From IMG/VR virus record IMGVR_UViG_3300008261_000075, positions 1-64,000 of that record: a stretch of 64,000 nt of DNA. One strand, 5' to 3'. Below are positions 44,473-64,000 of the stretch, piece after piece. Source of the DNA: a virus (lineage: Duplodnaviria > Caudoviricetes). A model generated the notes under the pieces. The model ran no database searches, was not told the DNA's origin, and saw only the letters and a list, made by a program, of their open reading frames with translations. Both the position numbers and the translations under genes were made by a program. Each line of letters opens with the position of its first letter. The stretch's first letter is position 1.

Positions 44473-45524
44473 TGTACGATATAATTTTCCTACATAATAA
44501 GTCTTGGCCAGAAGATGCATTAAACCGTGCAAAAGATCAATTTCCGTTAGCTAAAATAGTTTATGATTTAGATGCTTTTTCTACAGCAGTAAATTACACA
44601 AACACTGTTAGAACTAAAATGTTTTGGATTATACCAACTGTCCAACTTCTTAGTTTTGAATTTTTAAAAATAGATCCTGTATTTTTAGATAGGATTTCTT
44701 ATTTAGAAGATGTAAATTCTAATAAGATCTATTTGTGCCCTGGAAGAAAACCAGTAACTAAGGCAGCATTTGAATCTGCTAAATTTTTAGTAAGCACTCG
44801 ATATAAAAAATCATCAGTATGTTATGATGTATTTTTTCTCAGTTACAATGAAACTTATGCAGAGAATAACTGGCAAAAATTAAAAAACAAAGTGCCATCT
44901 GCAAATAGAGTAAACGGGATTAAGGGAATAGCCAATGCACATAAACGTGCCGCACTCGGTTCTGCAACAAGTTTTTTATGGGTAGTTGACGCCGATGCAA
45001 TAATTGAAGACACTTTTAAATTTACCTACGAAGTATCAGCTGATCATTTTGATACAGTTCATATTTGGAAGAGTCGTAATCCAGTCAATGGATTAGAATA
45101 CGGTTACGGCGGAATAAAGTTATTACCAAAACATCTATTAATAGATAAAACAGCAGGAGTTGATGTTACTACTAGTTTAAGTCACAATGTTAAAGTTATG
45201 GACGAAATTAGCAATGTAACAAACTTTGCGGTTAGTCCATTTGAAGCATGGAAAGGTGCGTTTCGAGAGTGTGCAAAATTAGCTAGTCAAAGTATTGATA
45301 GACAAGATACTAGCGAAACACAGGATCGATTAGCAAAGTGGTTAGAGCCAACTAATCATGTATTTGCTAACTATATACTTGATGGCGCACAGCAAGGAGA
45401 GTTGTTTGGGAAAACGTGCAGAAGTAACATATCTGCACTGGTTTCAATTAACAATTATGATTGGCTAGGCAATCAGTTTGATACAAGATCGTTAGCCATA
45501 GGGAACACTGTTGAAATTACTTGA
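44472..45524 (+). CDS. Glycosyltransferase-like protein (GT-A), paralogue of 43549..44472
   Basis: SYNETYAE, RVNGIKGIANAH, VDADA, YGYGGIKL, AWKGAFRECAKL. Confidence 0.7.
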   Translation: MYDIIFLHNKSWPEDALNRAKDQFPLAKIVYDLDAFSTAVNYTNTVRTKMFWIIPTVQLLSFEFLKIDPVFLDRISYLEDVNSNKIYLCPGRKPVTKAAFESAKFLVSTRYKKSSVCYDVFFLSYNETYAENNWQKLKNKVPSANRVNGIKGIANAHKRAALGSATSFLWVVDADAIIEDTFKFTYEVSADHFDTVHIWKSRNPVNGLEYGYGGIKLLPKHLLIDKTAGVDVTTSLSHNVKVMDEISNVTNFAVSPFEAWKGAFRECAKLASQSIDRQDTSETQDRLAKWLEPTNHVFANYILDGAQQGELFGKTCRSNISALVSINNYDWLGNQFDTRSLAIGNTVEIT

Positions 45525-46141
45525 GCACATGCTTTGGCAATTTCTTGATGTTCTAGTTGAGTACCGTTAGCTGATCGAAGTTCTATGTAGTGTACCCAAC
45601 TACGTAAAGTTCCATTCATATATAAACGACTTTCTGTAAGACCTTCTGGTAAAACAGCACGAGCCTGTTCCTTGGCAATACCTCTTTCAATTGCCTCAGA
45701 GTATGCTGAACTAGCCTGTTCAATAATCCATTTTTGTTTAGCATCCCACCATGCTTGCAGTTCTGTGTCATTTGTGGAAATACTGTTTTGCCTATTTTTT
45801 GTATCTTGTAGCCTAGCCTCTCGAATTACAAAATTTAAATCTTTAGTAGGATCAGCGTAGCGTTGACTAAACTCTTGAAATGCAAAGCTTCGATGTCGCA
45901 GAATTTGCCTTGCAATATCTCTAGTAGTAGTAATTTCAATACAGGCGCTGACCATTTCTAATGGTGACCAATGTTGATGTTTAATTAGATATTTGATAAG
46001 TTTTTCACTAGTTTCTGTATTAAATTGATTGCTAGGATTACTTACTCTTGCACAATATGCAATAAGTTCTTGAGCATCAGCGATGCCCAAATTCTTAAAC
46101 TCTTGTGTGGGTTGACTGTAGGATAGGAGGTTAACTTTCAT
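45473..46141 (-). CDS. thyX: Flavin-dependent thymidylate synthase
   Basis: HWSPLE, RQILRHRSFAFQEFSQRY ThyX motif, EQARAVLP. Confidence 0.95.
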   Translation of the reverse strand: MKVNLLSYSQPTQEFKNLGIADAQELIAYCARVSNPSNQFNTETSEKLIKYLIKHQHWSPLEMVSACIEITTTRDIARQILRHRSFAFQEFSQRYADPTKDLNFVIREARLQDTKNRQNSISTNDTELQAWWDAKQKWIIEQASSAYSEAIERGIAKEQARAVLPEGLTESRLYMNGTLRSWVHYIELRSANGTQLEHQEIAKACAQVISTVFPMANDLVSN

Positions 46142-49394: not shown

Positions 49395-49423
49395 ATTATA
49401 ACACCGCCCTAAGGCGGTGTCAA
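49395..49423 (-). promoter_or_regulatory. Sigma70 consensus promoter with internal palindrome
   Basis: TTGACA-17 nt-TATAAT on the minus strand; ACACCGCC-CTAA-GGCGGTGT at 49401-49420; AGGAG RBS downstream. Confidence 0.85.
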
Positions 49424-49428
49424 TCATT

Positions 49429-50526
49429 TTAGCGAACGCTCTTTTCAGTTGCTGCCGAAATGTACTTTCCATACTTTGCATGGAAATCATCAAAACACTT
49501 GATCTCATCTGGATCCAGCGGAAGTTTATATTGGCTCAATGCCAATTTAGTACCCATAATAACTAATTCTGTTTCAAAATTATCCATCATGAACTGGAAA
49601 AAGTTATTAACTTGTAAATCCCAATCTTTAGAACGTTTGTCGTTTGCTTCTTTAAGCTCGTAGCACAGACTAACAGTCAATGAGTACATGGCACTGATTT
49701 CTTTAGTATCCATTTTCTTAACTTTGCCAGACAGGATATCTGTTGGATTAGGCATTTTGCTGGCATGCTTACGGTGTGCCATAAATTTAATAGCAAGACC
49801 TTCGCCAATTGCTCCACAAGTAAGATCAGTAAGTGTACTGTCATCGCAGTCGTCGTCTGTGAGCAGTTCGCTAACGAAAGCCCATGAGCGAGGTGTAGCA
49901 AATGCACGTGAGCTAGACTTTGGGTCAAAGTCGTACAGGTCCTTCTTAGAGAAGGTCAAGAAGCCAACTACGTCTTTATGGATCTTGTTTTCAGTAGCCC
50001 ACTCAAAATAGTCATCCCACTCAACAGTCATTTCCAAGTGAACGAAACGGTTAGCCAACGGCGCAGGCATACGATAGGTAACACCCTTGTCAGTTTCACG
50101 GTTACCAGCGGCAACCATTACAACGTTGTCTGGCAATTCATAAGTGCCTACTTTACGGTTGAGCACTAGCTGATAAGCCGCGGCCTGTACGCTAGGAGCC
50201 GCAGAGTTCATTTCGTCCATAAACAGGATAATTTGTTTATGATTCTTAGCAAATTCTTTGCTTGGCAATTCACCTGGAGGTGCCCAAACCATTGTATTAG
50301 AGTTTGAGTCAAAATATGGAATACCTTTAATGTCGGTAGGTTCCCAAAGTGACAAACGAACGTCGATCACATATGCGTCAAGTTCTGCACCCAACTGTTT
50401 AATAATATCTGACTTACCAATTCCTGGAGGACCCCAAAGGAAGATTGGACGTTTACTGTTAAATGCTTTACGCAGGGATTTTTTAGCGGCTTTAGGACCA
50501 ACGGTACGTGAAATGATCTCGCTCAT
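49429..50526 (-). CDS. MoxR-type AAA+ ATPase
   Basis: GPPGIGKS, LFMDE, AAGNR, LANRF, TPRSW; adjacent to the vWA gene. Confidence 0.9.
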   Translation of the reverse strand: MSEIISRTVGPKAAKKSLRKAFNSKRPIFLWGPPGIGKSDIIKQLGAELDAYVIDVRLSLWEPTDIKGIPYFDSNSNTMVWAPPGELPSKEFAKNHKQIILFMDEMNSAAPSVQAAAYQLVLNRKVGTYELPDNVVMVAAGNRETDKGVTYRMPAPLANRFVHLEMTVEWDDYFEWATENKIHKDVVGFLTFSKKDLYDFDPKSSSRAFATPRSWAFVSELLTDDDCDDSTLTDLTCGAIGEGLAIKFMAHRKHASKMPNPTDILSGKVKKMDTKEISAMYSLTVSLCYELKEANDKRSKDWDLQVNNFFQFMMDNFETELVIMGTKLALSQYKLPLDPDEIKCFDDFHAKYGKYISAATEKSVR

Positions 50527-50573
50527 ATATACTCCAGGGTTAAAAATTGTTAAGAACTATCTGTCTATGTGTT

Positions 50574-50602
50574 ATTATACGACAGTAGCTTAACTAAGTC
50601 AA
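50574..50602 (-). promoter_or_regulatory. Sigma70-type early promoter
   Basis: TTGACT-17 nt-TATAAT upstream of the MoxR gene. Confidence 0.8.
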
Positions 50603-50613
50603 CTGGAATTTTA

Positions 50614-51021
50614 TTAATTTTGGACAGAATCGTCCAAATCTTTTTGGCGTTCTTTCATTGCTTTTACTAGTCCAAATTTTCGAATATCGTCCGAAAATAG
50701 ATAAAGCTCAAAACTTTTCTTTTCTGAGAATACTGTTATGCTTTCGGCAGTCAAATAGTACGGGCAATCAATGTATCGTTCTAAAAATACAATAGTCTGA
50801 GGGCTTAGTTCAATAGATTCGGTAAACGGTATCTCGTAGCTTTTTAAATCCAATTCTTCTAATAGGAATTTAAATCCTTCGTCGCTAAGTCTGAATGCTG
50901 ACTGTTTGCCAACTCTTGTAGATTGCCACCATTTTCGTGAAAACAATTTAACATTGGTGTCATCTGTACCCTTGCCCCATTGTTTGAGAAAAATTTTAGT
51001 TAATGTATCTCTCTCAATCAT
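50614..51021 (-). CDS. Hypothetical phage protein
   Basis: FRLSDEG, IDCPYYL; ATGA overlap with the upstream gene. Confidence 0.7.
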   Translation of the reverse strand: MIERDTLTKIFLKQWGKGTDDTNVKLFSRKWWQSTRVGKQSAFRLSDEGFKFLLEELDLKSYEIPFTESIELSPQTIVFLERYIDCPYYLTAESITVFSEKKSFELYLFSDDIRKFGLVKAMKERQKDLDDSVQN

Positions 51022-51302
51022 TTTTGAATTTCACCTTGCGTTAATTTAACCACTTGGAAATCTTGAGTACCAAAAGTTAGATTAAGTTTTTTAGCAAGGT
51101 TTACAGCATGTCCGGGATTGCTAAAGGATACTTTTTTGTACTTAGGTCCAGGGTAGCTGGTAAGGCTGTTGAATGATTTAAGATTAAACGGCTGTCCTTT
51201 ATAGAAGACTGCCCAAATGGCATCAGCTTCTAAAACTTGTTCAGCTTTATAAGTTTTTTTGTTAACGTACTCTAATAGAACTTTAGGTTTTGGTCTGCTC
51301 AT
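51018..51302 (-). CDS. Hypothetical basic phage protein
   Basis: MSRPKPKVLLE, GPKYKKVSFSNPGHA. Confidence 0.75.
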   Translation of the reverse strand: MSRPKPKVLLEYVNKKTYKAEQVLEADAIWAVFYKGQPFNLKSFNSLTSYPGPKYKKVSFSNPGHAVNLAKKLNLTFGTQDFQVVKLTQGEIQK

Positions 51303-51330
51303 ATGCGTTGTTATCTACGCATATATTTAT
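51301..51330 (-). promoter_or_regulatory. Late promoter overlapping a start-codon-sequestering hairpin
   Basis: ATAAATA at 51324-51330; inverted repeat ATATGCGT (51301-51308) / ACGCATAT (51317-51324). Confidence 0.65.
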
Positions 51331-51356
51331 CATTTTTAACGGTATAAAGTACCAAG

Positions 51357-51602
51357 TTAATCTTTCTGAAAATCTCCACCGTCCATTTCAACAGAAACTA
51401 TATCTGGATTAGATCCTTGTTTTAGTGCATGATACAATGTTTCCCAGTCTCTATTCATGTGCTCTAATACTTCTGCTAGTGCTAGCGAGATTAAACGTGC
51501 CTGTTGCATAGGCAGTTTAACTTCTTTTTGTTGGCTTAATTCCGCAGTTCGTATTTGCTGAATAAACTGTGTTATTGGAGTAGTATTAATCTGATTTTGC
51601 AT
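51357..51602 (-). CDS. Hypothetical protein
   Basis: 81-aa ORF ending VEMDGGDF; overlaps upstream gene. Confidence 0.7.
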   Translation of the reverse strand: MQNQINTTPITQFIQQIRTAELSQQKEVKLPMQQARLISLALAEVLEHMNRDWETLYHALKQGSNPDIVSVEMDGGDFQKD

Positions 51603-52068
51603 TAGCTAACATAACCTTCATTTCAAGTTCACTAGTAAATGGACCTTTATATGGATATCGCTCTACAGTGATTGCTTTTGGACAAAAACTTTTAACCCAA
51701 CCTTTGTCAAATTTAATTACATAGTATCCAGCACAATAAAGACTTTTTGATTTTTCACTTTTAGTAAACAGTGGCAGTTTTCTTCTTACATCGTACATGG
51801 CGTTATACGGATTACAACTAGCCGGATACCCATGACACTCCTTGTTCTCTTCAGTTGAAGTAATCTTCACTTTGGAATTTTTTAAGAAAAAGTCCTTGCC
51901 AAATTGTTTGGTAAGATCATCTTTCTTATTAAACATAAGTTCACCGCCAGTTGAACTGAGCATAAACTTGTTGTTTTCTTTTTTATGTAGTAGACCTACT
52001 TTGACACCGTCTTGTTCAACGATCCAAAATTTTCCATCTATAATAGGCTTAGCATAATATTCTGTCAT
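51586..52068 (-). CDS. Hypothetical phage protein
   Basis: AGGAG RBS; LPLFTKS..S.S.YCAGYY, FCPK. Confidence 0.75.
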   Translation of the reverse strand: MTEYYAKPIIDGKFWIVEQDGVKVGLLHKKENNKFMLSSTGGELMFNKKDDLTKQFGKDFFLKNSKVKITSTEENKECHGYPASCNPYNAMYDVRRKLPLFTKSEKSKSLYCAGYYVIKFDKGWVKSFCPKAITVERYPYKGPFTSELEMKVMLANAKSD

Positions 52069-53088
52069 TTAATTCTCCTGTAATAGCTCACGTATCTCAT
52101 TTGATCTTGTTGGATACTTTGCTTGGAATGGCTCAGCATACGACTGTATGTTGTCTGCAATTTTTTTCATATCCCACGCATTGCAGAATTTTAACATACG
52201 TATACCGACTTGTGTAATGTCCTTAGGTACAGCATGTGTGGCAATTGTTTCTTTAATAATTGTTTTAATTTCGTCGGGCTGTGCAGTCAAGTCGCATAAT
52301 TTAACATTACGAATATAATCATCTAGTACACGATGTTCGACGCCGTTATGGTCAACCCAACGTTGAAGCATGAGATTGTTCCAAGAATATCCTTTGCTCT
52401 TACGATCTTCAAATGCTTCCATTAGCCCCACTTTATTTTTAGAACCTTTTGTACGCACACCGGGATAAGCTGAGAATACATTATCACTAGTATCTCCACG
52501 CATACACTTTTCGAATAGCATCCATTCTGGATCTTGTGCAGGCTTTGGCTCCCCTGTCTTTTTATCTTTAACAGGTTTACCTTTAGCATCAAATATGCCC
52601 TCGTGTGTAATATGTAAATCACCTACGCCGTTATACTGACTAACTGTAGGGCTTACTAATTGTGCAAAATCCCCGTCTGTTGAAATAATAACGTGTTTGT
52701 CAGTTGGATGACTTTGTATCCAGCCTGCAATTAAGTCGTCTGCTTCTAATTGCTGATGTTGCATTACTGTACAATTAGTTTTTTCTGTAATAAAAGTCTT
52801 AAACTCGTCAAACGCTTCCCAGAACAATTTGTCTTCTTCTTGTTCTTTTACAGTCATTGCACTACGAGTTTCCTGTCTGTTGCGTTTATACGGCTGATAA
52901 AAGTCTTTACGCCACGAGCGACCTTCGAGGCAGAACACTACGTGAGTACCGCCGAAGTCGTTCCACGCTTTTTTAATGCTATTGAAAGTAATGTGAAAAG
53001 CCATGCCAAGTTTAATATCAGCACCACCTTGCACCACGTGTCTAGCACGAAAAAACGTGTTAGCAGTATCAACTATAATGTGTGTCAT
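52069..53088 (-). CDS. rnh: T4 RNase H-like 5'-3' exonuclease
   Basis: IVDTAN, SWRK...YK.NR, LEADDLI, STDGDFAQL, GDTSDNV. Confidence 0.9.
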   Translation of the reverse strand: MTHIIVDTANTFFRARHVVQGGADIKLGMAFHITFNSIKKAWNDFGGTHVVFCLEGRSWRKDFYQPYKRNRQETRSAMTVKEQEEDKLFWEAFDEFKTFITEKTNCTVMQHQQLEADDLIAGWIQSHPTDKHVIISTDGDFAQLVSPTVSQYNGVGDLHITHEGIFDAKGKPVKDKKTGEPKPAQDPEWMLFEKCMRGDTSDNVFSAYPGVRTKGSKNKVGLMEAFEDRKSKGYSWNNLMLQRWVDHNGVEHRVLDDYIRNVKLCDLTAQPDEIKTIIKETIATHAVPKDITQVGIRMLKFCNAWDMKKIADNIQSYAEPFQAKYPTRSNEIRELLQEN

Positions 53089-53516
53089 GAAACCTCTGAT
53101 TTGCCTTTTGTTAGCGGAACAACATTAATAAAACCTGCTGTGCGATTTCTTGGATCTAATCCTTGCTCCATAAACATATTACTAGCAAGCTCTCTGAACC
53201 AACGATCCACAATCTCTTCGTCTGGATCACCATCAAAACCGTATCCAGCTTGTTTCAATTGTACTATAAAAAGGTCATTCCAGTCAAGCTCAAAGAAACC
53301 GTTTCTAACGTTATCATGGTTAACATGTGTGTTAAGCACTCCTACCCATGGTTCACCTTTTTTAGTAGCTCGATCTTTTGGAGTAGCTTTAGCTTGCTCT
53401 TCTTTTTGCTGAGCCAATACAGCTTCGGCCGCGGCTTTGTCTCTAGCCGCTTGAAGCTCGGCTTTTTCTATTTCTAGTTTTTCAATTCCAAAAATACGTT
53501 TAATAAATTGTTTCAT
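53085..53516 (-). CDS. Hypothetical phage protein
   Basis: GEPWV, GFFELDWN, IVDRWF; start MKQFIKR at 53516. Confidence 0.7.
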   Translation of the reverse strand: MKQFIKRIFGIEKLEIEKAELQAARDKAAAEAVLAQQKEEQAKATPKDRATKKGEPWVGVLNTHVNHDNVRNGFFELDWNDLFIVQLKQAGYGFDGDPDEEIVDRWFRELASNMFMEQGLDPRNRTAGFINVVPLTKGKSEVS

Positions 53517-54370
53517 TATGTACCCCACTCATTTTTAAACAACGGCACTTGCAAACGGTCACTGTAGCGCCATCCACGTTTCATTGCAGCCAATGCTACA
53601 TTCTTTGCGTTCAGCGTGTACACACTTTCAACGCCGCCTACAGGCATTAGATAAACATGACCTTTAAACCCTGCTTCGCGATATTCCTCCACAGCATGTT
53701 CTGCATCAATAATATCTTCTTCAGTTGCTACTACAAACTTCAAATATGCCGTGCCAACTTCTTCGTACTCGCAAACAATTTCTGGCTTAATTGCATCAAA
53801 CCAATTCTCGCCACTTGCCGGCAGTTTAGCACTTACACTAAAGGTAAGTTCTTTTCCTACTACGCTATTCCATTTTCTTAAATATTCTTTAAACTCTGGT
53901 GTAAGTTTCTGGGTACCGTTTGTTTCAAATGTGATCTCTTTTAATCCGCGCATCTTAGAATTATTCAACAAGTCTGGATAAGCACGTTGCCAGCCTAGCA
54001 AAGGCTCACCGCCTGTAATAACCAAATGTTCATCCTGCCAATCATTATGCGGAATGATTTCCATGATGCGATCTACAATGGCTTCACTAGTAAGCATAGG
54101 ACTAAGATCTTTAAAATCTGGATGCCAGCTGGCATAGCTGTCACAACCAGTGCTAACTAATGGCAAGTCTTCGTATTTTGTAAATGGAGTAATCATTGTA
54201 TGTGTAGCCGCAATGTCTGTTGCTTCGTGACTAATTTCACCACGCGGCATGCCAAACCCACTACATTTAAAGTTACAACCAAATGTACGTAAGAAAACAG
54301 ACGGTACACCCATATACCGTCCTTCACCTTGTATACTATAAAATAATTCTGCAATTTTAATCTTTGACAT
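53516..54370 (-). CDS. queE: 7-carboxy-7-deazaguanine synthase (radical SAM)
   Basis: ELFYSIQGEG, FLRTFGCN, CDS, ITGGEPLL, ETNGT, KFVV, YLMP, RLQ..L. Confidence 0.92.
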   Translation of the reverse strand: MSKIKIAELFYSIQGEGRYMGVPSVFLRTFGCNFKCSGFGMPRGEISHEATDIAATHTMITPFTKYEDLPLVSTGCDSYASWHPDFKDLSPMLTSEAIVDRIMEIIPHNDWQDEHLVITGGEPLLGWQRAYPDLLNNSKMRGLKEITFETNGTQKLTPEFKEYLRKWNSVVGKELTFSVSAKLPASGENWFDAIKPEIVCEYEEVGTAYLKFVVATEEDIIDAEHAVEEYREAGFKGHVYLMPVGGVESVYTLNAKNVALAAMKRGWRYSDRLQVPLFKNEWGT

Positions 54371-54698
54371 TCTGTTTCCTAAATTCTTCTACATCTTTGA
54401 TTGCTAATTGTAACACAGATGCATAGTTTAGTGCAACCTGTTTGGTCATAATAATACAAGATTCAGTTTCAACATAACCTTTGGTTAGCAACTTCCAAAT
54501 ATGTGTCCAACGTCTAGTAGACCAAAAATTTGTTCTTGTTTGGGTATAGACTGTTACTGTAACACCTACGTCCTCCGCCTCTACATCTATAGTATGTGTA
54601 CAGTCGTTATCACCGCATTGGCATACAGCTTTGTACATTTTACTAGAACCCCAATCGTTGATTAGGAGTATACCATTGGCAGGTTCTTGTGCGCTCAT
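54357..54698 (-). CDS. Hypothetical protein (CxC...H motif)
   Basis: VCQCGDNDCTH; coupled ORF. Confidence 0.65.
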   Translation of the reverse strand: MSAQEPANGILLINDWGSSKMYKAVCQCGDNDCTHTIDVEAEDVGVTVTVYTQTRTNFWSTRRWTHIWKLLTKGYVETESCIIMTKQVALNYASVLQLAIKDVEEFRKQNVKD

Positions 54699-55012
54699 CG
54701 TAAGACCTCTAGTGTTGAAATTTTAGCAATCTTTTCACCAAAGTCTTCGTCTTTGCCAATAACATATATTTGATGATCGTGTCTGTCAGTTTTACGGTCA
54801 TAGCGAGTAAACTCTACAACCTTGCCACCTACAGCGTTGTATACTTTGAACTGTAGTGTAGCTTCGCTATCAACGTGAGCACGACCACTGATAGTGCTGA
54901 TAGTATTGCCACGACTCAACTTAGGACTTGGATAACAATCCTCTGGCTGGTCTCTAGCATTTTCCCAATCCTCACGTACCCATTTAACCACCATTCTTTT
55001 AAACCAGTTCAT
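54695..55012 (-). CDS. Hypothetical protein
   Basis: FKVYNAVGGKVVE; ATGA overlaps. Confidence 0.7.
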   Translation of the reverse strand: MNWFKRMVVKWVREDWENARDQPEDCYPSPKLSRGNTISTISGRAHVDSEATLQFKVYNAVGGKVVEFTRYDRKTDRHDHQIYVIGKDEDFGEKIAKISTLEVLR

Positions 55013-55227
55013 TTACAAGTCTCCAACCATTTATCTAAACGATCAACAGCCTCTTCAAAATCAACAGCCCAAACTTTAGCTTCAATTTCTCCGTCGACTA
55101 TTTGCATGTTAAACGGAACAACTCCGTTAAATCTAAAGTCAGCTGGTGTGTTTACACATACAGTAAACTCCTGCAAATTTTTTGCGCGACTAATAAATTG
55201 ATCCATAATATCTTTAGCAGTATCCAT
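55009..55227 (-). CDS. Hypothetical protein
   Basis: Coupled small ORF with RBS. Confidence 0.65.
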   Translation of the reverse strand: MDTAKDIMDQFISRAKNLQEFTVCVNTPADFRFNGVVPFNMQIVDGEIEAKVWAVDFEEAVDRLDKWLETCK

Positions 55228-55733
55228 TATTCTTCCTCAGGTTTAGGGTTATCCGTACTCCACGGCCACGATGTTCTAGGATCCGGCCGCGGTTTAAGTT
55301 TAACGTTTTCTTCAATAACTGTGCCGTCATCTTCGCACAGATCAATTTGATACGGAGCAATGATGTGAACCGCAGTGTCTTCTTCTAGCCAATCATGTTC
55401 CCCGTCAAACAACCAACCAGCGCCACCATCGTAGTAAGCTTCTCGGATAGCTTCTTGTTCTTCTTCACCGATATCATCACTAAACTCAATTTCAATGTTA
55501 ATGCTGTCATCAAACTCACAACCCCAGCCTGCATCAGCTCTAGCATAAGCAACATCATCGCCCTCCCAAGGAAGGTTGCAGTCTAAGTCGCCCTCCACAA
55601 AACCTTGACCCCAACGATAAGTTTCGTCAATGGTAAAAGAACTAATGCTACCGTCTGCATTTTCTCTAAACATTTCTACATGATAGACAATGCTTTTCTT
55701 TTCAAGTGGTTTAATTACATATACTTGGCTCAT
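55227..55733 (-). CDS. Acidic hypothetical protein
   Basis: AAGGA RBS; PLEKKS, YRWGQGF, GAGWLFDGEHDW. Confidence 0.7.
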   Translation of the reverse strand: MSQVYVIKPLEKKSIVYHVEMFRENADGSISSFTIDETYRWGQGFVEGDLDCNLPWEGDDVAYARADAGWGCEFDDSINIEIEFSDDIGEEEQEAIREAYYDGGAGWLFDGEHDWLEEDTAVHIIAPYQIDLCEDDGTVIEENVKLKPRPDPRTSWPWSTDNPKPEEE

Positions 55734-55742
55734 AATTTTTCC

Positions 55743-56423
55743 TTAACGTGGTTTCTTTGTACCCTGATCATCTTTAAATGCGCCTTTAAGTACTGTAGTC
55801 TGTGTTAGACTAGAGTGTGCCATAATACCACGGTTTTCACAACAGCCGTGTGTGGCTTGAATGTATACTGCTACGTTTTCTGAGTTGGTTGCTTTTTGGA
55901 TTTCCCTAGCAATGTCATTACAAAGTTCCTCCTGGAGAGTACCTCTACGGGCACACCACTGAGCGATCCTTGTATACTTGCTAAGTCCGATGAGTTTCTC
56001 AGCCGCAATAATACCAATATAAGCAACGCCAGCAACGGGTTGGTGATGATGGCTACACATACTGCGAAGCTCACTACGAACAACCAACATACCTTGATAA
56101 CGGTCTGTCGAGTCATTTGGAAACGCGGTTGCGTCTGGTGCTGGTTCATATCTTCCTGCCATTATTTCATTAAAGTACATTTTAGCAAGACGTCTTGCTG
56201 TACCTTTGCTGTTAGGATCAGTTTCTCGATCAATCAACAGGGTGTCTAATACTTGTTCAAATGCTGTTGTTGCTTCGTTGATTAAAGAATCTTTTTCAAC
56301 ATCGCTAATGTATTCGCTGATATTGTCGCCAGCCCAGAAACGTTTGTTATTTTGTTTGAGCCTGTTGCGGATAACCTGGCTAAGAGGTCGTCCGTCTTCT
56401 TCTTTATAATGTAGTTCTGACAT
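55743..56423 (-). CDS. folE: GTP cyclohydrolase I (C-terminus apparently clipped)
   Basis: SMCSHH, GLSKYTR, LQEEL, THGCCENRG. Confidence 0.92.
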   Translation of the reverse strand: MSELHYKEEDGRPLSQVIRNRLKQNNKRFWAGDNISEYISDVEKDSLINEATTAFEQVLDTLLIDRETDPNSKGTARRLAKMYFNEIMAGRYEPAPDATAFPNDSTDRYQGMLVVRSELRSMCSHHHQPVAGVAYIGIIAAEKLIGLSKYTRIAQWCARRGTLQEELCNDIAREIQKATNSENVAVYIQATHGCCENRGIMAHSSLTQTTVLKGAFKDDQGTKKPR

Positions 56424-56462
56424 TTATTCTCCGAGTTAGTGTCGTGGATGACATATACTAGT

Positions 56463-56492
56463 AGTATATAGGTTTATTTAGGTCAAGGTCAA
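56463..56492 (-). promoter_or_regulatory. Probable folE promoter(s): sigma70-type plus embedded TAAATA
   Basis: TTGACC-18 nt-TATACT, with TAAATA at 56475-56480 in the spacer. Confidence 0.5.
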
Positions 56493-56503
56493 GTTTTCTC
56501 TGC

Positions 56504-56725
56504 TCAAACATTATCGGGAATTTTGTTTAAGATTTGGCAAAGTGATTTGACATCATCGTTGGTCATGAAGAAATTATAAGTTTGGCTGTCTACAACCTCG
56601 CCATTGTTCAAACTCTCCTGTATAAACTCTACAGAATTATAATCTTCTGGTCTAACACATTTCCAACTTTTAACACGAAGACGGAATCCTTCGCTTTCTT
56701 TAACAACTTCATTTAATACGTTCAT
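56504..56725 (-). CDS. Hypothetical protein
   Basis: AAGGAG RBS before ATG 56725. Confidence 0.7.
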   Translation of the reverse strand: MNVLNEVVKESEGFRLRVKSWKCVRPEDYNSVEFIQESLNNGEVVDSQTYNFFMTNDDVKSLCQILNKIPDNV

Positions 56726-56735
56726 GTATTTCTCC

Positions 56736-57302
56736 TTAAAAAATAAGATCGGCTGCAATTACAAATCGATCTTGAGTTGATTGTGGTATCATGGGCCTAT
56801 GATACACTTTACCAGGGTAAACAATCCAAGTAAAATCTTTTGGTACAGATTTAAATCTTTCAAGATTTTCTACGCCATTATAGGCAAATTCTGTACCACA
56901 TTCTGTTTTGTCTGCAACATCATCAGGAATGTGCAAATAGTACACACCACTTAGTGTGCGCTCCTCACCGTATTGATGAGTATGCCAGAGCCTTTCCCGA
57001 TCTTCTTGAATAGTGTTTGAAGTCATAAAACTCCAAGCCATTAGTTGTTTAATTGGAACTTCTTTTCCAAGATACATAAAACAACTAAAGATAAAACTCA
57101 TTCTAAATTTTAACCAAGTAGGATCTTGGATTCCAAACAAATTAACTTCTGTTTGATACTTTGGTGAATTTTTAAAATATCTACCTTGATCAATAAATTC
57201 TCTAATTTGTGACTTTGCACTATTGTGATCGTCAGAAGTTATAACCGAACTAAAATCGTATTCTTCAAAAGTTTCAAAGCCGTTATTAAATACCACTGTC
57301 AT
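56736..57302 (-). CDS. 2OG-Fe(II) oxygenase-like protein
   Basis: WHTH...LSGVYYL...YPG...H...R.VIAAD double-stranded beta-helix pattern. Confidence 0.75.
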   Translation of the reverse strand: MTVVFNNGFETFEEYDFSSVITSDDHNSAKSQIREFIDQGRYFKNSPKYQTEVNLFGIQDPTWLKFRMSFIFSCFMYLGKEVPIKQLMAWSFMTSNTIQEDRERLWHTHQYGEERTLSGVYYLHIPDDVADKTECGTEFAYNGVENLERFKSVPKDFTWIVYPGKVYHRPMIPQSTQDRFVIAADLIF

Positions 57303-57556
57303 AGTCGTTCACTTAATAGTATGCGGCATAACTGCTCGTCTTTTTCATTTTTAAAATGAAACTCCATAAAGTCTTCAAATGGGTGATAGACAAACCTATC
57401 ACCGGGTAAACCAAACACTTCCAATACCATGGCACATGTTTCATTCCACCACGATGTTCCTTGATTGTGCCAATCTACTCGAACACAATAACTAAACTTC
57501 TTTACGGTAATTACCCTTTTCTGGGATAACGTGTCTAACACCGCCTCTTGGGTCAT
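57299..57556 (-). CDS. Hypothetical phage protein
   Basis: WWNETCAMVLEVFGLPG; start uncertain because it overlaps the HIT gene. Confidence 0.6.
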   Translation of the reverse strand: MTQEAVLDTLSQKRVITVKKFSYCVRVDWHNQGTSWWNETCAMVLEVFGLPGDRFVYHPFEDFMEFHFKNEKDEQLCRILLSERL

Positions 57557-57866
57557 CCATATCTCCTTTGCGTCGCGGAATCATATGTACATGTGGGTAC
57601 ATTACTGTTTGACCAGCAGCCTCGCCAACATTTTGTCCGATGTTGAACGCTTCCCACCGTCCAAGTTCAACGCCTTCAAACCCGAATTTATATGCGGCTT
57701 TGAAGCACTCCCAGAGATTAACACTTTGCTCTTCGGTAGGCACAAATAGCAAATGCCCGGGGGTAACTGGATATGCGTCTCTAAACACCCAAAAGTCTTT
57801 TGATCGGAATTCAATTTCAGTCCACGGTGCTCGATTTTCATCTAAGGCCCTTTCAAGGTTGGTCAT
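57492..57866 (-). CDS. HIT-family nucleotide hydrolase
   Basis: D.YPVTPGHLLFVP, N.GEAAGQTVMYPHVHMIPR. Confidence 0.9.
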   Translation of the reverse strand: MTNLERALDENRAPWTEIEFRSKDFWVFRDAYPVTPGHLLFVPTEEQSVNLWECFKAAYKFGFEGVELGRWEAFNIGQNVGEAAGQTVMYPHVHMIPRRKGDMDDPRGGVRHVIPEKGNYRKEV

Positions 57867-58014
57867 CTTTAATCTCAGCAAGTTGTTCTAGTAAGTATTC
57901 TCTATACATTCTTAACGATTCGCTATGACGATCTGCGTTAGTAGGCATGTCTTTTACTTTTTCTAGGTCTGCATTTACTTGCGATATTCTTTGTAAGATT
58001 TCATCTTTAGTCAT
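57853..58014 (-). CDS. Small coiled-coil protein (53 aa, not in ORF track)
   Basis: Hand translation MTKDEILQRISQVNADLEK...EIKDDQP*; ATGA overlap with the PRTase stop; fills the gap exactly. Confidence 0.65.
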   Translation of the reverse strand: MTKDEILQRISQVNADLEKVKDMPTNADRHSESLRMYREYLLEQLAEIKDDQP

Positions 58015-58508
58015 TTAACCCACCATTCCTCGTATGGAAATTCAATCCAAACATCTTTCTCAGCTTTATTAACTTCCATGCCCCAGTAATTCATTCCGAC
58101 ATTGCACTTACTACTAAGATTATCAACGACTACAGCAAACCTAACATTATTACCCCAGACACCTTCCCATTTAGGATCGTCGGGAAAGCAACCGCTTGGC
58201 CAGTCTTTCATAATCCAGTTTAAAGTAGTTCCTTGGTCATTAATATCGTCAACAATGAGAATGTTTTTATTATTATATGCATCTTCAGCCATTCCTAGAT
58301 CGCTAACAGTTTCAATGTTATCTCGAAGACTAACCTGTAGCGGCTTCATAGGGATGTTAAAATATTGACTAATCATTACAGCAGGCAATAACCCACCACG
58401 ACTAATACCTACAATGTAGTCAGGTTTCCAACCAGTACGTTGAATAGTAGAACACATGTTTAAAACAAGCAATTTAAATTCTTTAAATTTTATTAAACGC
58501 TTGTTCAT
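58011..58508 (-). CDS. Type I phosphoribosyltransferase (Gpt/Hpt-like)
   Basis: VGISRGGL, PRPP loop ILIVDDINDQGTT, WIEFPYE. Confidence 0.9.
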   Translation of the reverse strand: MNKRLIKFKEFKLLVLNMCSTIQRTGWKPDYIVGISRGGLLPAVMISQYFNIPMKPLQVSLRDNIETVSDLGMAEDAYNNKNILIVDDINDQGTTLNWIMKDWPSGCFPDDPKWEGVWGNNVRFAVVVDNLSSKCNVGMNYWGMEVNKAEKDVWIEFPYEEWWVK

Positions 58509-59977: not shown

Positions 59978-60961
59978 GTAGTGCATCCTTTTGTTTTCTT
60001 ATTTGCGGCAAGAAAGAAGCATAGTTTTCCATGTATTGAGTTATTTTATAACATATAGCAGGTCTAAACATTTCGTATGCTTCAAAACTTTCAGTCCAAT
60101 AGCATCTACTACGGCACCTTCGTACCAACTGATGCCAAGTGTTTCTTGTAAGTTAGCACTGAACACTAGTTTAGCCTCGCCTAACAAATTATGATACTCG
60201 TTCTTTGTAAGTTGCTGATCCTGACAAACAACAAATTCATATTGTGGTAAGTGTTCTTTTAGATCACGGAATATGTCAACTTGTTTTTCTGGAGCGATAC
60301 GATGCGGGAAAAGAATAAGATCACGCTTGGGCATGTTTTTATACATTAACAATGTATCCTGCATATACTCCATAGGCCAGCCAGTACGTACAAATCTAGG
60401 ATCTTCACCATTTAGGATTTCTTCTAAGTGTTCACTATACCAAGGATTTTCTGTAGGATAATCATTTAGTAAATTTGTATAGAACAACTTGATATGGAAA
60501 TCTGTAGCAAAGTAGTTATGATCAAATGCGTGAAAGAAACTCTTCTCAGCATGTCTAACCCAAGGCTTATTACCTACAAGACGTCCTAAAAAGTCTTGCG
60601 GATCATAACTACCAGCATGCCATAAGCCGTGAGTGACTACTGGAATGCCCAGCAATTCACTCATATACTTTAGGTTAATGATACCCGGGTGCCAAGCATC
60701 AGTAAAAATAAAGTGATCACCGGGATGAACGGCTCCGTCGCAAAATAGACGACCCATCTGCTCCACTTGTGCTGATTTATAAATGTTGGTACCGCCAAAA
60801 TTAAGGAACGCACCCGGAGTAGTTGCTGTAGGAATGTCTGTAGGCCCACATAGAACTTGAACATTGTGTCCTGCCTTTTTAAGTAAAGTAGGTACATGGC
60901 GCTTCCACTGCGCCGTATACCTGGTTTCAACTGCTTCTAAATCAACTAAAAATACGTTCAT
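59931..60961 (-). CDS. GT-B glycosyltransferase, frameshifted at ~60098 (ORFs 60041..60961 + 59931..60128)
   Basis: WHAGSYD, FPHRIAPEK, LQETLGISWYEG (E-x7-E). The natural-looking C-terminus WTESFEAY...FFSATKLL is in another frame. Confidence 0.8.
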
Positions 60962-61203
60962 TAAGCATCGTGTCTTGAGTTATTAAATCTAGGCTTATTT
61001 CCTAGGTACGGTTTACGTTCACCGGTCCAGGGCTTCTTTTCGCCATTCCATGGACGCTTAGGTCTGCGGCTATTTTCAAATGAACGCCATACGTGGCTTT
61101 CTCTATTATAGAGATCTGCCGGGTTGTATGGAAGGAGTTCGAATCTGCAAAAATTTAGCAGGTTTTCGAGATCGTTAAAAATTTTAACAACTTCCGGTTT
61201 CAT
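60961..61203 (-). CDS. Small basic protein
   Basis: IFNDLE.L.NFCR...YNPADLY; AAGGA RBS; KRPWNGE/KKPWTGE repeats. Confidence 0.7.
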   Translation of the reverse strand: MKPEVVKIFNDLENLLNFCRFELLPYNPADLYNRESHVWRSFENSRRPKRPWNGEKKPWTGERKPYLGNKPRFNNSRHDA

Positions 61204-61216
61204 ATACTGTCCTTAA

Positions 61217-61279
61217 TTAATATTTGATAAATGAACCATTTTCTCCGTCTTCGGAGACCTCAATCCAAACCTCACGGCT
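61217..61279 (-). pseudogene. Orphaned 3' end of the queD-like gene
   Basis: Translates SREVWIEVSEDGENGSFIKY*, versus GREVWIEVSEDGENGALIKF* at 62819-62881. In-frame stop at 61322-61324 upstream. Confidence 0.85.
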
Positions 61280-61292
61280 AGAGAGATAAGTT

Positions 61293-61889
61293 ATGCCTAT
61301 ACTGACTACCACTAATGTTAATTATACTTGTTTTTTGTGCGGAAGTCAAGCCTTCTACATAAGTGTGAACTCCAAACAGATGCGTTGCGTTGAAAAAATT
61401 ACCCAATGTCCGGGCCACGCTAAGAAGGCCGAAGCCTCTCGACAGGCACGAATGAGTAAAGCGGATAGAATCAAACATATGAAAACTATGAGCGAACGAG
61501 GAAATGCCAGTCTCAAGGAACTTCATACTGATGCTAATTGGCGTAGACAAAAAGGACACAATATTTCCAAGGCTAAATCTACCATTCCTATCGAACAGCG
61601 TCCTCTCTGGGAAGCATACGAAAACATTGTTGATAGAATTACAAGAGATAGTTGGATATATCATAATGATAAAATTAATCCTTTAGGGCTACCGCGGGGA
61701 ACTGAATACGAGTTGGATCACAAATATAGCAAACATCAAGGTTTCCTAAATAATGTGCCGCCCGAATTAATCGGGCATTATTCAAATCTTCAAATGATTT
61801 CACGGCATTCCAATCGCACAAAGTATAATAAATGTTCCATTACTTTGGAAAAACTTCTTCAACTTCAACAGGTCGAAAAACTGGTGTAG
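61293..61889 (+). CDS. HNH homing endonuclease with N-terminal Cys cluster
   Basis: CFLC...C...CP; YELDHKYS...NLQMISRHSNRTK (H-N-N); GAGAG before ATG. Confidence 0.85.
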   Translation: MPILTTTNVNYTCFLCGSQAFYISVNSKQMRCVEKITQCPGHAKKAEASRQARMSKADRIKHMKTMSERGNASLKELHTDANWRRQKGHNISKAKSTIPIEQRPLWEAYENIVDRITRDSWIYHNDKINPLGLPRGTEYELDHKYSKHQGFLNNVPPELIGHYSNLQMISRHSNRTKYNKCSITLEKLLQLQQVEKLV

Positions 61890-62043
61890 ATTTTGACATT
61901 CTTACAAACTCTAAATTATTAACTGAGAGTGTGTCTAATGTGCCGCGATAGCGTTCAATGCTTACTTTGCCGTTATTTTCAATAACATAGAAAAACTGAT
62001 CAGTAGCACCACCGTCTATTTGTTGTTTAAAATATTCGTTCAT
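61840..62043 (-). CDS. Hypothetical cargo protein
   Basis: ATGA overlap with the upstream ORF; converges on the HNH gene. Confidence 0.55.
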   Translation of the reverse strand: MNEYFKQQIDGGATDQFFYVIENNGKVSIERYRGTLDTLSVNNLEFVRMSKSTPVFRPVEVEEVFPK

Positions 62044-62267
62044 TCTTCAACTCCGAAATGTTGTTTAATCTCCGCCATACATTGTGTGCCACCATTCAAC
62101 CAAGTATCAACTGATTCGGGAACAGGATCACTGATAACTTGTTCGCAACATCCTAAACATTCCTTTACAATCAACTCGGCGAACTTTTCTTTACTGAAGA
62201 CGAGTTCTCCATCATATGGCACAAGACTCTGTGCGGCAAACTTTTCCAACATAGGTATCTTTTTCAT
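62040..62267 (-). CDS. Small phage protein (EKFAELIV.EC...IK.HFGVE type)
   Basis: Recognisable motif of small phage accessory proteins. Confidence 0.7.
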   Translation of the reverse strand: MKKIPMLEKFAAQSLVPYDGELVFSKEKFAELIVKECLGCCEQVISDPVPESVDTWLNGGTQCMAEIKQHFGVEE

Positions 62268-62509
62268 TCTTTGTAAACCTTTGTAGTTTTTTCAAATCCA
62301 ATATAGGTTGTTTCAGTAATATCTTTACCAAGCAAGTTTTTGATTTTAGGATCATTCCAACAATCTTCGTCAATCATAATATTTTTAGTAAGACGCATTT
62401 TACTGAGTATGTAGATAACTTCTTCCAGTGTAGTCACTTGAGACCAGTCCAATGTCTTGTATCTGTTAGTTATTGGTTCTGGCGGTAATCGCTTAAACAG
62501 ATTCCACAT
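62264..62509 (-). CDS. Hypothetical cargo protein
   Basis: Coupled ORF (TAATG overlap). Confidence 0.6.
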   Translation of the reverse strand: MWNLFKRLPPEPITNRYKTLDWSQVTTLEEVIYILSKMRLTKNIMIDEDCWNDPKIKNLLGKDITETTYIGFEKTTKVYKE

Positions 62510-62817
62510 TACACATTCCCCAATCCTACTCTACTATAACCCAGTTCTGATTTAACTTCTCGCTCAATGTTTTGAGTCTTATGCCGCCAGTTGATACCCC
62601 AAGTGGTAATAAACTCAATAGCATCACTATCAAGATTACACTCAACATAGCCCATATTGCCCCAACGGCGATTTTCTGGATCTGCCAAGCACCACGCTTC
62701 TAACTCTGCCCGTTGCTCTCCACCATAGTGCGACATCTCAAAACAATATTTAAACTTGTTCTTAGAATGAGGAGGTGGCATCTGGCGAATAGTAGTTCGG
62801 GGCAAAGGCTTAGACAT
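62509..62817 (-). CDS. Hypothetical cargo protein
   Basis: Starts 1 nt after the queD-like stop. Confidence 0.6.
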   Translation of the reverse strand: MSKPLPRTTIRQMPPPHSKNKFKYCFEMSHYGGEQRAELEAWCLADPENRRWGNMGYVECNLDSDAIEFITTWGINWRHKTQNIEREVKSELGYSRVGLGNV

Positions 62818-62818
62818 A

Positions 62819-63241
62819 TTAGAACTTAATTAGAGCACCATTTTCGCCGTCTTCTGACACTTCGATCCAAACTTCTCGTCCTGGGTGTTTTGCGGCAATC
62901 TGTTCATACAAATCTTCTGCCATCATCTCACAGGATTTATAGTCTAACTGGAGTGTTCCTTGACTATACAGATTTTCTAACCAGCGTTTAAATTGAATAA
63001 ATTCAATCGCCCGGTCTGAATGTTCTACGGAAATCCAAACTTTAAAGTGGAAGATGTGACGATGCGGATATCCTAGAAAACTTACATCGTACTCATCACC
63101 TGTAGCAAGTGCTGGATCTGTAAGTGCGGCTGGATATTTGTGCATACCTTCTTTCTGAAAGGTAACCCAAATCATTTTGTTAGGGCGGATATCTTGTTTA
63201 ATAATCATAGGATTTAAATTTTCTATTTTACCAACTATCAT
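62819..63241 (-). CDS. QueD-like (6-pyruvoyltetrahydropterin synthase / T-fold) protein
   Basis: H...HRHIFHF, IEFIQFKR, SCEM.A, IEVSEDGENG; lies in the folE/queE/GT neighbourhood. Confidence 0.7.
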   Translation of the reverse strand: MIVGKIENLNPMIIKQDIRPNKMIWVTFQKEGMHKYPAALTDPALATGDEYDVSFLGYPHRHIFHFKVWISVEHSDRAIEFIQFKRWLENLYSQGTLQLDYKSCEMMAEDLYEQIAAKHPGREVWIEVSEDGENGALIKF

Positions 63242-63756
63242 TGTACAATCTCGTCATTGTTATATTGTGACCAGTCTGTGAAGTTTTTACGATCCATAAG
63301 TGAGTGCAGACTGTGGGACCACACACCTGGGTTTGTTGCTTTAAAATCCTTGTCATCAATTTTAAGCATTGTATTATAGTTCCATAATTTAATATATGGA
63401 ATTGGCACACGTATTTGCGGAATAAAGTTATCATACTCACAATAACCGCTTTCGTGAAATTCTTCAATTTGATTAAACGGAATATCTAAGGAGCATAGAA
63501 CACCTTTTTTAAGGAAATAAAAGATCATTTCTTCCCATGCTTTGTGTTCTTCATAGGTCCGTGGATTAAAACTATGATTAGCACCAAAGAAAATATGCTT
63601 ACATTCTTTATCTTTAAAGAATTCTTCTATAGCATTGCAAGGGTGTACTCCTACAACAAACAAACTTAATTTTCCAAACGCAGGAGTATGTTCAATTTCA
63701 GTGCCAACAAAAAAGTTTACTCCCGTAGTAACTCCATCATTGTAATTACGCTTCAT
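63238..63756 (-). CDS. Hypothetical protein adjacent to the queD-like gene
   Basis: F.G.E.EHTP, HIFFGANHSF, KIDDKDFKATNPGVW, FTDWSQY; start MKRNY at 63756. Confidence 0.75.
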   Translation of the reverse strand: MKRNYNDGVTTGVNFFVGTEIEHTPAFGKLSLFVVGVHPCNAIEEFFKDKECKHIFFGANHSFNPRTYEEHKAWEEMIFYFLKKGVLCSLDIPFNQIEEFHESGYCEYDNFIPQIRVPIPYIKLWNYNTMLKIDDKDFKATNPGVWSHSLHSLMDRKNFTDWSQYNNDEIVQ

Positions 63757-64000
63757 CTTTTTTGTCCTTTGCTTGCTCGTACCGCCTAAATAATCTAGTA
63801 ACATCTTCCATTTGTGTTTGAAATATATGTGGACTAGCTTCACAGACCTGCATCATATCCCAATCACTGGGATAGTGGCGTAATACACCTCTAGCTTGAC
63901 TGCGTATAATTGCAGGAACCTTAGGAGTCTTTTGCGGATCCATTAGTTCTTGCAAAAACTGGCGAGCCATTTTTACTGCACGATATCTTTCGTCGGGGAG
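63746..64000 (-). CDS. BPSL0761-like small protein (5' end beyond window)
   Basis: Frame open to the edge: LPDERYRAV...TPKVP..IR..AR..LRHYP. Confidence 0.7.
   Translation of the reverse strand, partial: LPDERYRAVKMARQFLQELMDPQKTPKVPAIIRSQARGVLRHYPSDWDMMQVCEASPHIFQTQMEDVTRLFRRYEQAKDKKDEA

Follow-up and report, generated by a model that had tools for sequence, protein, structure and literature searches.

A putative free-standing homing endonuclease gene beside a queD-like gene of large freshwater phages, with an apparently imported gene end and a displaced one

Genes and repeated tails at the queD locus

The DNA considered here, which we call the window, is a stretch of 64,000 nucleotides at the start of the IMG/VR virus record IMGVR_UViG_3300008261_000075; the whole record has 109,386 bp and is rated about 30% complete. 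The window has a G+C content of 38% and contains several very large open reading frames (ORFs). Near the end of the window lies a queD-like gene (62819..63241, minus strand, 140 amino acids) whose 3′ end is found twice, and a gene on the opposite strand between the two copies encodes an HNH-like protein of the homing type. We think it likely that this is a free-standing homing gene resident at the 3′ end of queD-like genes in large freshwater phages, and that in one sub-lineage it entered by a one-sided event that brought in a foreign queD end, displaced the resident tail, and was followed by further spread.

The queD-like protein ends in REVWIEVSEDGENGALIKF before the stop, that is, GREVWIEVSEDGENGALIKF. 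About 1.6 kb downstream and in the same orientation, a second in-frame copy of the tail (61217..61279, minus strand), which we call the orphan, ends in REVWIEVSEDGENGSFIKY before its stop, that is, SREVWIEVSEDGENGSFIKY. The best local DNA alignment of the two copies has 35 identical nucleotides out of 42, and the seven differences are all synonymous changes at third positions (CGT/CGA, GAG/GAA, ATT/ATC, GAG/GAA, GTC/GTG, TCC/TCA, and GGA/GGC). In the working copy, the 14 repeated codons (REVWIEVSEDGENG) occupy 62837..62878 on the minus strand, and their diverged synonymous codons give five mismatches to a 33-nt core. Given that the orphan matches this core with no mismatches, that the core is kept in relatives, and that no other copy is found in the record, the duplication is not a chance resemblance. 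Neither the core, the nuclease gene, nor any of the ORFs between the tails was found again elsewhere in the 109-kb record.

Four minus-strand ORFs follow the working tail. The first two, c102 (62509..62817, 102 amino acids) and c81 (62264..62509, 81 amino acids), belong to no family; c75 (62040..62267, 75 amino acids) has distant homologues and belongs to a small-protein family with the motif FAELI(V/I)xxC; and c67 (61840..62043, 67 amino acids) overlaps with its 3′ end the 3′ end of the nuclease gene, which is read from the plus strand (61293..61889, 198 amino acids). In this record, the ATG of the nuclease gene lies 13 nt from the R codon of the orphan, whereas the spacing is 42 nt in five related contigs; alignment with these contigs places a 29-nt deletion at 61278..61279 of the window. 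Beyond the orphan are an 80-amino-acid gene (p80; 60961..61203, minus strand), which is the normal downstream neighbour of queD, and a 306-amino-acid gene (p306; 60041..60961, minus strand), which neighbourhood comparison marks as a conserved backbone neighbour. The initial annotation of this DNA had described the two tails with their seven synonymous differences, as well as four ORFs and an opposite-strand nuclease gene 13 nt from the orphan, and both descriptions are confirmed for this record by the ORF calls and the DNA alignment. A megablast search of 60000–64000 against a phage collection gave zero matches, and no usable match came from a Pfam search with ten local proteins.

A NUMOD3 module, of the kind typical of homing endonucleases, scores above the Pfam cut-off (20.4 bits) in two homologues of the nuclease (33.9 bits in L100 and 27.5 bits in L105) and is present in many of its database relatives. 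The NUMOD3-bearing relatives are 41–45% identical to the window protein, which is shorter, being without the 47-residue segment that holds the module in them. The window protein itself matches phrog_5104 at 1.7e-14 and is 25–30% identical to T6 ORF19.1-type genes of T-even phages, one of which is annotated as an HNH endonuclease. Its family, which comprises at least 140 sequence clusters in public data, has an invariant motif, read by eye, of D142-H143...N165...H172/N174, together with N-terminal Cys and His residues. On account of this motif, of NUMOD3 in relatives, and of HNH leads from a protein language model, we regard the protein, which the initial annotation labelled HNH, as an HNH-like nuclease of the homing type and not as a proven HNH enzyme.

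Empty sites, the imported tract and the spread of the nuclease gene

For comparison with cassette-free relatives, we used an IMG/VR scan with the queD-like gene, taking the best 80 of at least 599 stretches (74–86% identity), so that all frequencies given for them are rough. The nuclease gene and all four ORFs are absent from 80 of 80 such loci. A p80 homologue directly follows queD in 78 of them, and the other two loci break off about 65 nt or less from queD; p80 itself is highly variable, with 30–72% amino acid identity across the empty loci. All 77 complete 3′ ends of this clade carry the orphan type of tail, 75 ending in GSFIKY, one in GSFVKY, and one in GSLIKY, and the orphan, the spacer after it, and the 80-amino-acid gene are colinear with the empty sites at the DNA level. 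The 33-nt core is exact in 40 of the 80 loci and has at most three mismatches in 78. The working tail of the window, ending in GALIKF, resembles instead the tails of other clades (GCLIKF in L090 and GALIKY in L076 and L078). Because the complete empty alleles end in the orphan type of tail, and because of the colinearity and the core match, the orphan is the resident tail and the working tail the imported one. Thus, the cassette-free alleles on which the initial annotation depended do exist, and the polarity that it proposed for the two tails is borne out. As a separate observation, queD-like genes of other clades (L084 to L090, L076, and L078) have an 11-residue C-terminal extension, as in NLTRPSQSIII, which is absent both from the queD clade of the window and from the imported tail.

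The foreign sequence extends well beyond the repeated codons. In codon-aligned sliding windows, the 5′ part of the window's queD gene is 96–100% identical in nucleotides to some empty allele, and from about aligned codon 40–47 (residues 65–72 or so, near 63028–63049), the best empty allele drops to 69–84%, with the exception of one 15-codon window that reaches 91%. The drop is seen in all five cassette contigs, whose identity to one another stays at 87–94% in this tract, and empty alleles compared with each other as a control have a median best match of 93–100% throughout. The queD 5′ parts of the window, L083, and L188 match different empty alleles, each at 96–100% nucleotide identity. Thus, where the initial annotation saw a recoded tail of 21 codons, the imported tract is roughly the last 70 codons (62819..63040, minus strand, with an approximate left boundary at about 63028–63049) of a naturally diverged allele, which makes the working gene a chimera with a resident-like 5′ part and a foreign 3′ part. 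Within this tract, the serine codon of the KSCEMM motif is AGT in 99% of the 77 empty alleles and TCC in all cassette alleles. This three-base switch at Ser103 (62996–62998), inside the most conserved peptide motif of the protein, is a candidate immunity change.

Single-sequence and family-alignment searches found 16 distinct IMG/VR loci of the nuclease gene, down to 41% identity, and a metagenome set gave 20 loci, some of them on the same contigs as the IMG/VR matches. The gene lies antiparallel and just 3′ of a queD-like gene in all 16 IMG/VR loci and in 18 of the 20 metagenome loci; of the remaining two, L204 holds only a partial match to the nuclease, and L205 stops just past its orphan, with 72 nt of the nuclease gene. 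The association of nuclease homologues with this target, on which the initial annotation had staked its interpretation, therefore holds. In a second queD clade, the nuclease gene adjoins queD in 14 of 80 loci, three loci have partial matches elsewhere, and 63 have none. Similarities of neighbouring genes are incongruent, for L084 and L090 are 84% identical in the nuclease and 52% in queD, while the window and L090 are 84% identical in queD and 30% in p306. Among the five cassette contigs, nucleotide identity is 91–99% in the nuclease gene, 87–94% in the 3′ part of queD, 72–95% in its 5′ part, and about 58–70% in the p80 region (full-length comparisons). Such a peak at the nuclease gene, falling on both sides, reads as the signature of a homing element with co-converted flanks. 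Sporadic presence with intact empty sites, a position fixed by the target, and horizontal spread, by which free-standing homing endonuclease genes are recognized, are all seen here.

The most serious alternative is that the queD module has a domesticated nuclease gene as a resident, acting for example on unmodified DNA and lost in many lineages, in which case the chimeric gene and the orphan would have arisen through ordinary mosaic recombination. The available text of PMC10448857 describes that genes resembling homing endonuclease genes can become domesticated. A constant position beside queD across clades down to 41% identity and a conserved leader would be expected of such a gene, and the phage genomes here are mosaic, with p80 hypervariable in general. 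Nevertheless, we judge this explanation improbable, given that the gene is missing from 80 of 80 and from 63 of 80 sampled relatives in the two clades, that identity is highest in the nuclease gene and declines to either side, that nuclease and queD similarities disagree, and that relatives carry NUMOD3 modules of the kind typical of homing endonucleases.

Returning to a homing gene that entered from one side, the right-hand junction is informative. The orphan occurs in only six contigs, namely the window, L082 (identical to L187), L083, L186, L188, and L205, and all share one junction, where the nuclease leader runs into the resident queD gene about 27 codons before the stop, with ATTT..CA common to the donor leader and the resident gene. 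There is no duplication and there are no cargo ORFs in any of the 13 other IMG/VR carriers. Carriers of this other kind have no room for an orphan, with the nuclease start about 20–100 nt from the next gene and its 3′ end abutting or overlapping queD; the overlap is 8–26 nt in L088 and L100. Between clades, p80 proteins are 27–49% identical, which is too divergent for p80 to serve as a homology arm. The orphans differ from one another exactly at the sites that vary among empty alleles, and different p80 types follow them. We read the duplication as a single one-sided event, with homologous repair at the queD end and joining by microhomology at the opposite end. It is not a property of the element in general, as first supposed, for it is limited to one sub-lineage of six contigs with one junction, and the other carriers sit cleanly between genes.

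The gap between the imported tail and the nuclease gene differs in every sister contig. The window has c102, c81, c75, and c67, while L083 has c102 (92% amino acid identity) and a c75-like ORF, L186 has c67 only (90%), L082 has a 52-amino-acid ORF and a c75-like ORF, and L188 has a 169-amino-acid ORF of the T5orf172/MUG113 type, above the Pfam cut-offs. No match to c102 was found in L082 or L186, and none to c81 in any sister contig; the c75 homologues in the same gap of L083 and L082 are distant (33–37% identity). Because of this turnover, the gap ORFs are a variable accretion in a permissive gap and not a defined payload. The ORF in L188 (1172–1681, minus strand; GIY-YIG-related) is a second nuclease-type gene at the same hot spot.

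These data bear on the idea, contained in the initial annotation, of a fixed cassette made up of a recoded 21-codon tail, four constant cargo ORFs, and an HNH gene, which inserts as a unit inside a coding sequence. The layout of the window suggested it, and c102 and c67 do each recur in one sister contig at the same relative position. However, it is distinctly improbable, since the foreign tract has about 70 codons, the sister contigs hold one, two, or different ORFs and once another nuclease gene, and the 13 other IMG/VR carriers have neither duplication nor cargo. What survives of the first interpretation is the empty sites, the target association, and the polarity of the tails. Two same-strand copies 1.6 kb apart could also have arisen if the queD 3′ end had been duplicated in tandem within this genome, one copy had then diverged, and genes had inserted between the two. 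This is highly improbable, because unrelated empty alleles have tails identical to the orphan and the working copy differs from these over about 70 codons, including the serine codon (TCC against AGT), and groups with other clades.

The leader of the nuclease gene is common to the family and consists of (T/G)ATAAATA, about 6–7 nt, GATAGAGAGATAAGTT, and then the ATG. A motif scan finds ATAAATA at six sites in the window, at 5658, 11406, 33270, and 37988 on the plus strand and at 805 and 51324 on the minus strand, each 20–30 nt before a start codon of the same strand, and it is probably the late-type promoter motif of this phage. As a promoter candidate, the T4-type late box TATAAATA was set aside in favour of this shorter motif, having zero sites in the window against 8.7 ± 3.0 expected, and a scan for sigma-70 promoters and terminators was unremarkable. 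The 29-nt deletion of the window removes the ATAAATA box of the nuclease gene and also the orphan's first 10 nt, the 5′ arm of a hairpin (H1) described below.

Public sequencing runs were compared through Logan contigs, which are mute on transcription, transcript ends, and allele proportions. Of the four runs compared, three (X1, X2, and X3) have a bridging contig that carries the extra 29 nt and is otherwise nearly identical to the window, with one other letter in about 2 kb, and the fourth has no bridging contig. The deletion is in no public-run contig compared and is known from the window record only; it may have arisen recently, possibly as the beginning of decay of the element, or it may be an assembly error. 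A 6.6-kb contig of run X1 spans 61248–63300 with one other letter. At least half of the sampled 31-mers of the region are present in 18 of the 24 listed runs, the rows coming from 15 studies, almost all of freshwater, and the cassette is thus widespread. Empty-type alleles are also found as contigs in the same runs as the cassette (joints 61273/61278 to 62973), and RNA-library contigs cover the cassette, without showing expression. An assembly chimera or artefact, to which one might ascribe a deletion seen in this record only, is scarcely credible for the locus itself, given that six contigs from different samples agree in junction and layout, and given the 31-mers in 18 of the 24 runs and the X1 contig. 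In the same runs, the summed contig depth over 62034–62195, within c75, is up to about 50-fold higher (999 against about 20 in run X2), and many contigs skip about 87–104 nt in the middle. It seems that c75 belongs to an abundant family of small genes with conserved ends and a variable centre.

The twin-hairpin element and the queD neighbourhood

The least expected part of the locus, and one that is new here, is an RNA-like element embedded in the resident tail. In the 77 empty alleles, the commonest synonymous codon has a mean share of 0.88 over the codons for KYPxREVWIEVSEDGENG and of 0.63 elsewhere in the gene, which makes the former the top 18-codon window of the gene for synonymous fixation. 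The block folds into two hairpins, H1 with a 9-bp stem closed by a GUGA loop and H2 with a 6-bp stem and a 4-nt loop. In the window's orphan, H2 lies at 61242..61257 (minus strand) and of H1 the 3′ arm remains at about 61260–61272, as judged from pairing and covariation. One H1 pair joins the third base of a G/D/N/S codon to the first base of a V/I codon and covaries across four amino acid contexts, being C-G in 48 of the 77 alleles, U-A in 25, U.G in four, and C-A in none. A neighbouring pair is consistent with pairing: a 5′ A is always opposite U (23 of 23) and a C at the partner position is opposite G in 10 of 11, the exception being an unpaired G-A, and in H2, one allele offsets a Gly-to-Arg change by a synonymous Ser change. 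Over 73 distinct sequences, 97.0% of cells pair, against 28–52% with slid partners, and 26 cells have double changes, against 10 ± 2 in shuffles, with 0 of 500 shuffles reaching the observed value, although the sequences are related and the structure was derived from the same data.

Single-sequence folding gave z-scores of −0.1 to −1.3, none of them significant, and it is covariation rather than energy that supports the hairpins. The G.U pairs imply an RNA of the sense strand. Rfam gave no matches at E ≤ 1 in 60000–64000 and none at the gathering score in L002, L006, and L083, and so no group I intron or other known RNA was seen there. General conservation of synonymous codons in queD tails was considered and dismissed, as the second queD clade shows none, and the block is therefore specific to one clade and is not a universal target of the nuclease family. 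The six orphans all keep 6 of 6 H2 pairs, and five of them keep 7–9 of the 9 H1 pairs; the imported working tails keep only 3 of 6 H2 pairs in all five cases.

Thus, the displaced tail may persist because it supplies the hairpin element before p80, and not only as a scar, and an element constrained in this way explains the unusual synonymous conservation inside a coding sequence. A bolder proposal, which we hold only tentatively and consider rather unlikely, is that the displaced tail is a working part, with the 54-nt block acting in cis as a structured RNA (two hairpins, the first with a GNRA-type loop) needed before p80 and serving also as the recognition platform of the nuclease, as the right homology arm, and perhaps as an operator. 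If this were true, a single sequence would be at once target, homology arm, and host-essential element, and the block would have been chosen because it is doubly constrained, as protein and as RNA.

The queD-like protein itself, which is assigned to phrog_17812, has no Pfam PTPS, NCBIfam, or PDB profile or sequence match. An AlphaFold model built on 24 relatives has a pLDDT of 83, and its top 10 PDB matches in Foldseek are Escherichia coli QueD (nine chains) and a Pyrococcus 6-pyruvoyl-tetrahydropterin synthase (PTPS), at a probability of 1.00, TM-scores of 0.59–0.71, and 18% identity. The model thus assigns the protein the T-fold of QueD and PTPS. His, Cys, and Glu residues are invariant in the alignment, which is a statement on conservation only. 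The window also encodes a GTP cyclohydrolase I (FolE; 55743..56423, 1e-38), a QueE-like radical-SAM protein (53516..54370, phrog_2076, 1e-51), a phosphoribosyltransferase (58011..58508), and ThyX (45473..46141). The best homologue of the queD-like gene, in Sinorhizobium phage Phosso, stands among genes annotated as glycosylase, glycosyltransferase, folE-like, and queE-like, and the 363-amino-acid Phosso gene directly after queD, annotated as a glycosyltransferase, is likened to p306 by position only. Because of the QueD fold, the FolE and QueE-like genes in the window, and the similar neighbourhood in Phosso, it is reasonable to place the gene within a deazapurine or pterin module. The initial annotation spoke of a DNA-modification locus; these genes make that plausible, while DNA modification itself would be a further step from them.

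Two further features were noted in passing. The minus-strand gene run from 45473 to 58508 comprises ThyX, a DUF2201 metallopeptidase/VWA protein, an AAA ATPase, a 5′-3′ exonuclease, the QueE-like protein, FolE, a 2OG-Fe(II) oxygenase-like protein, and the phosphoribosyltransferase. On the plus strand, 14899–22983 and 23280–29789 are ORFs of 2694 and 2169 amino acids in a probably structural block.

Proposed history and known systems

In the history that we favour, the home of the nuclease gene family would be the 3′ end of a queD-like gene, where it lies antiparallel with its own late-promoter-like leader and, in most carriers, between queD and the gene after it. In one sub-lineage, the element would have entered a diverged queD clade through a one-sided event. 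On the left, repair would have copied the 3′ part of the donor's queD gene; on the right, where p80 is too divergent to offer homology, the nuclease leader would have been joined by microhomology to the resident gene, at a point about 27 codons ahead of its stop. The composite would then consist of the resident queD 5′ part, about 70 foreign codons that complete the protein, a gap with variable small ORFs, the nuclease gene, and the displaced tail, which was probably kept for the twin-hairpin element that the foreign tail has lost. Finally, the composite may have spread into several backgrounds by homologous recombination, the body of queD providing homology on the left and the displaced tail on the right.

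Several points weigh against this history or some part of it. As to the nuclease, no HNH profile in Pfam matches even at E ≤ 10, a PDB sequence search returned nothing significant, the structure model is poor (a pLDDT of 46, too low for a fold search), and the ESM Atlas gave leads only (DUF7487 at 0.92 and HNH clusters at 0.87–0.90). As to its spread, the occurrence figures come from the rough scan described above, and the different p80 types beside the cassette are weak evidence on their own, as p80 is hypervariable everywhere. The left breakpoint lies at about the same place in all five contigs, when independent homing should give more scatter; there could have been fewer independent events than it appears, or a preferred stretch for crossovers. 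As to immunity, the relation between core divergence and presence of the nuclease rests on about five independent lineages, and L080 has a diverged core and is free of the nuclease. Furthermore, the orphan retains an intact 54-nt block, and carriers would be cut by their own nuclease if recognition and cleavage required nothing beyond this block.

The relation in question is that the working tails of carriers have at least 5 mismatches in the 33 nt of the core, while 79 of 80 non-carriers have at most 4. The L080 tail (6319–6384) ends in GSFIKY, has 8 mismatches out of 33 in the core, and resembles the carrier L090 in its DNA; the nuclease may have been lost from this site and a resistant sequence kept. 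The core alone was rejected as the cleavage site, as carriers keep it intact in the orphan. Because the block is intact there, a putative site must reach into the replaced segment or lie within it, and the candidates are the left edge of the block (the junction site) and the KSCEMM-coding stretch with the serine switch. The layout, the polarity of the two tails, the single junction, the sporadic distribution, and the identity gradient are seen in the sequences themselves; that the nuclease cuts the empty allele, that the carrier is immune, and that the hairpins have a role is inferred.

If this history is correct, the locus illustrates in uncultured freshwater phages how a homing nuclease may cross into a diverged lineage with only one homologous flank, and it supplies two alleles with which the target of an unclassified family of nucleases can be tested and mapped. 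Small ORFs and a second nuclease gene collect in the gap next to the nuclease gene, which bears on how hypervariable islands form in large phages.

To our knowledge, the T4 cases of free-standing endonucleases leave no duplicated gene end, and searches of open-access full texts turned up no phage report of a homing endonuclease with a displaced gene end. In other respects, the likeness to such genes is close. As in the Seg and Mob endonucleases, including MobE, described in the available portions of PMC2988022 and PMC2790892, a stand-alone gene sits sporadically between conserved genes, flanking markers appear co-converted in intronless homing, and the gene has its own late-type promoter. Unlike them, the nuclease here is known from its sequence and belongs to a family that matches no HNH profile. 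For I-TevI, the available part of PMC2988022 describes autorepression through an operator that resembles the homing site and overlaps a late promoter. In the five undeleted cassette contigs, the ATAAATA box of the nuclease gene abuts the conserved resident block, a likeness of position only, and the window record, in contrast to I-TevI, has lost the box; that this is an operator-like arrangement is speculation and would require the block to be a binding site. One-sided homing with illegitimate microhomology junctions has been shown for T4 introns (Parker et al. 1999, as described in the accessible text of PMC2988022), where it is proposed as a route into ectopic or diverged sites and where, as appears to be the case here, one side uses homology and the other a microhomology junction. 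That was an engineered td-intron system of T4, while here we would be dealing with a natural product turned transmissible unit.

Integrative elements, such as e14 and phage 21 in icd or prophages in tRNA genes, bring a replacement for the 3′ end of their target gene. There, as at the queD locus, the interrupted gene is made whole by a diverged 3′ end that the incoming DNA carries, and the original end is left as a downstream remnant. However, those elements use site-specific integrases and attachment sites, and no integrase or att-like repeat is involved here.

In layout, the locus matches the mobile endonuclease ORFs (mORFs) of fungal mitochondria, which replace the C-terminus of a gene, as in atp6 of Allomyces macrogynus, atp6, atp9, cox2, and nad3 of Glomus sp., atp9 of Rhizopus, and cox2 of Mortierella (PMC3630166, in the part available). 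There, too, a foreign in-frame C-terminus completes the gene, the native C-terminus survives downstream and is closer to that of relatives, an endonuclease ORF follows, and the accessible text of the same source reads the synonymous divergence between the copies as horizontal transfer. The differences are that the host here is a phage; that the nuclease is HNH-like instead of LAGLIDADG or GIY-YIG; that its gene is separate from the host gene, antiparallel to it, and preceded by a promoter-like leader of its own, in contrast to the mORF arrangement, in phase with the host gene or on the same strand; and that there are extra ORFs between the copies, a structured element in the displaced tail, and a family in which most members show no duplication. 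Thus, a layout of the mitochondrial type known from fungi, with an apparently imported end of the target gene and the old end kept, is found here in a phage.

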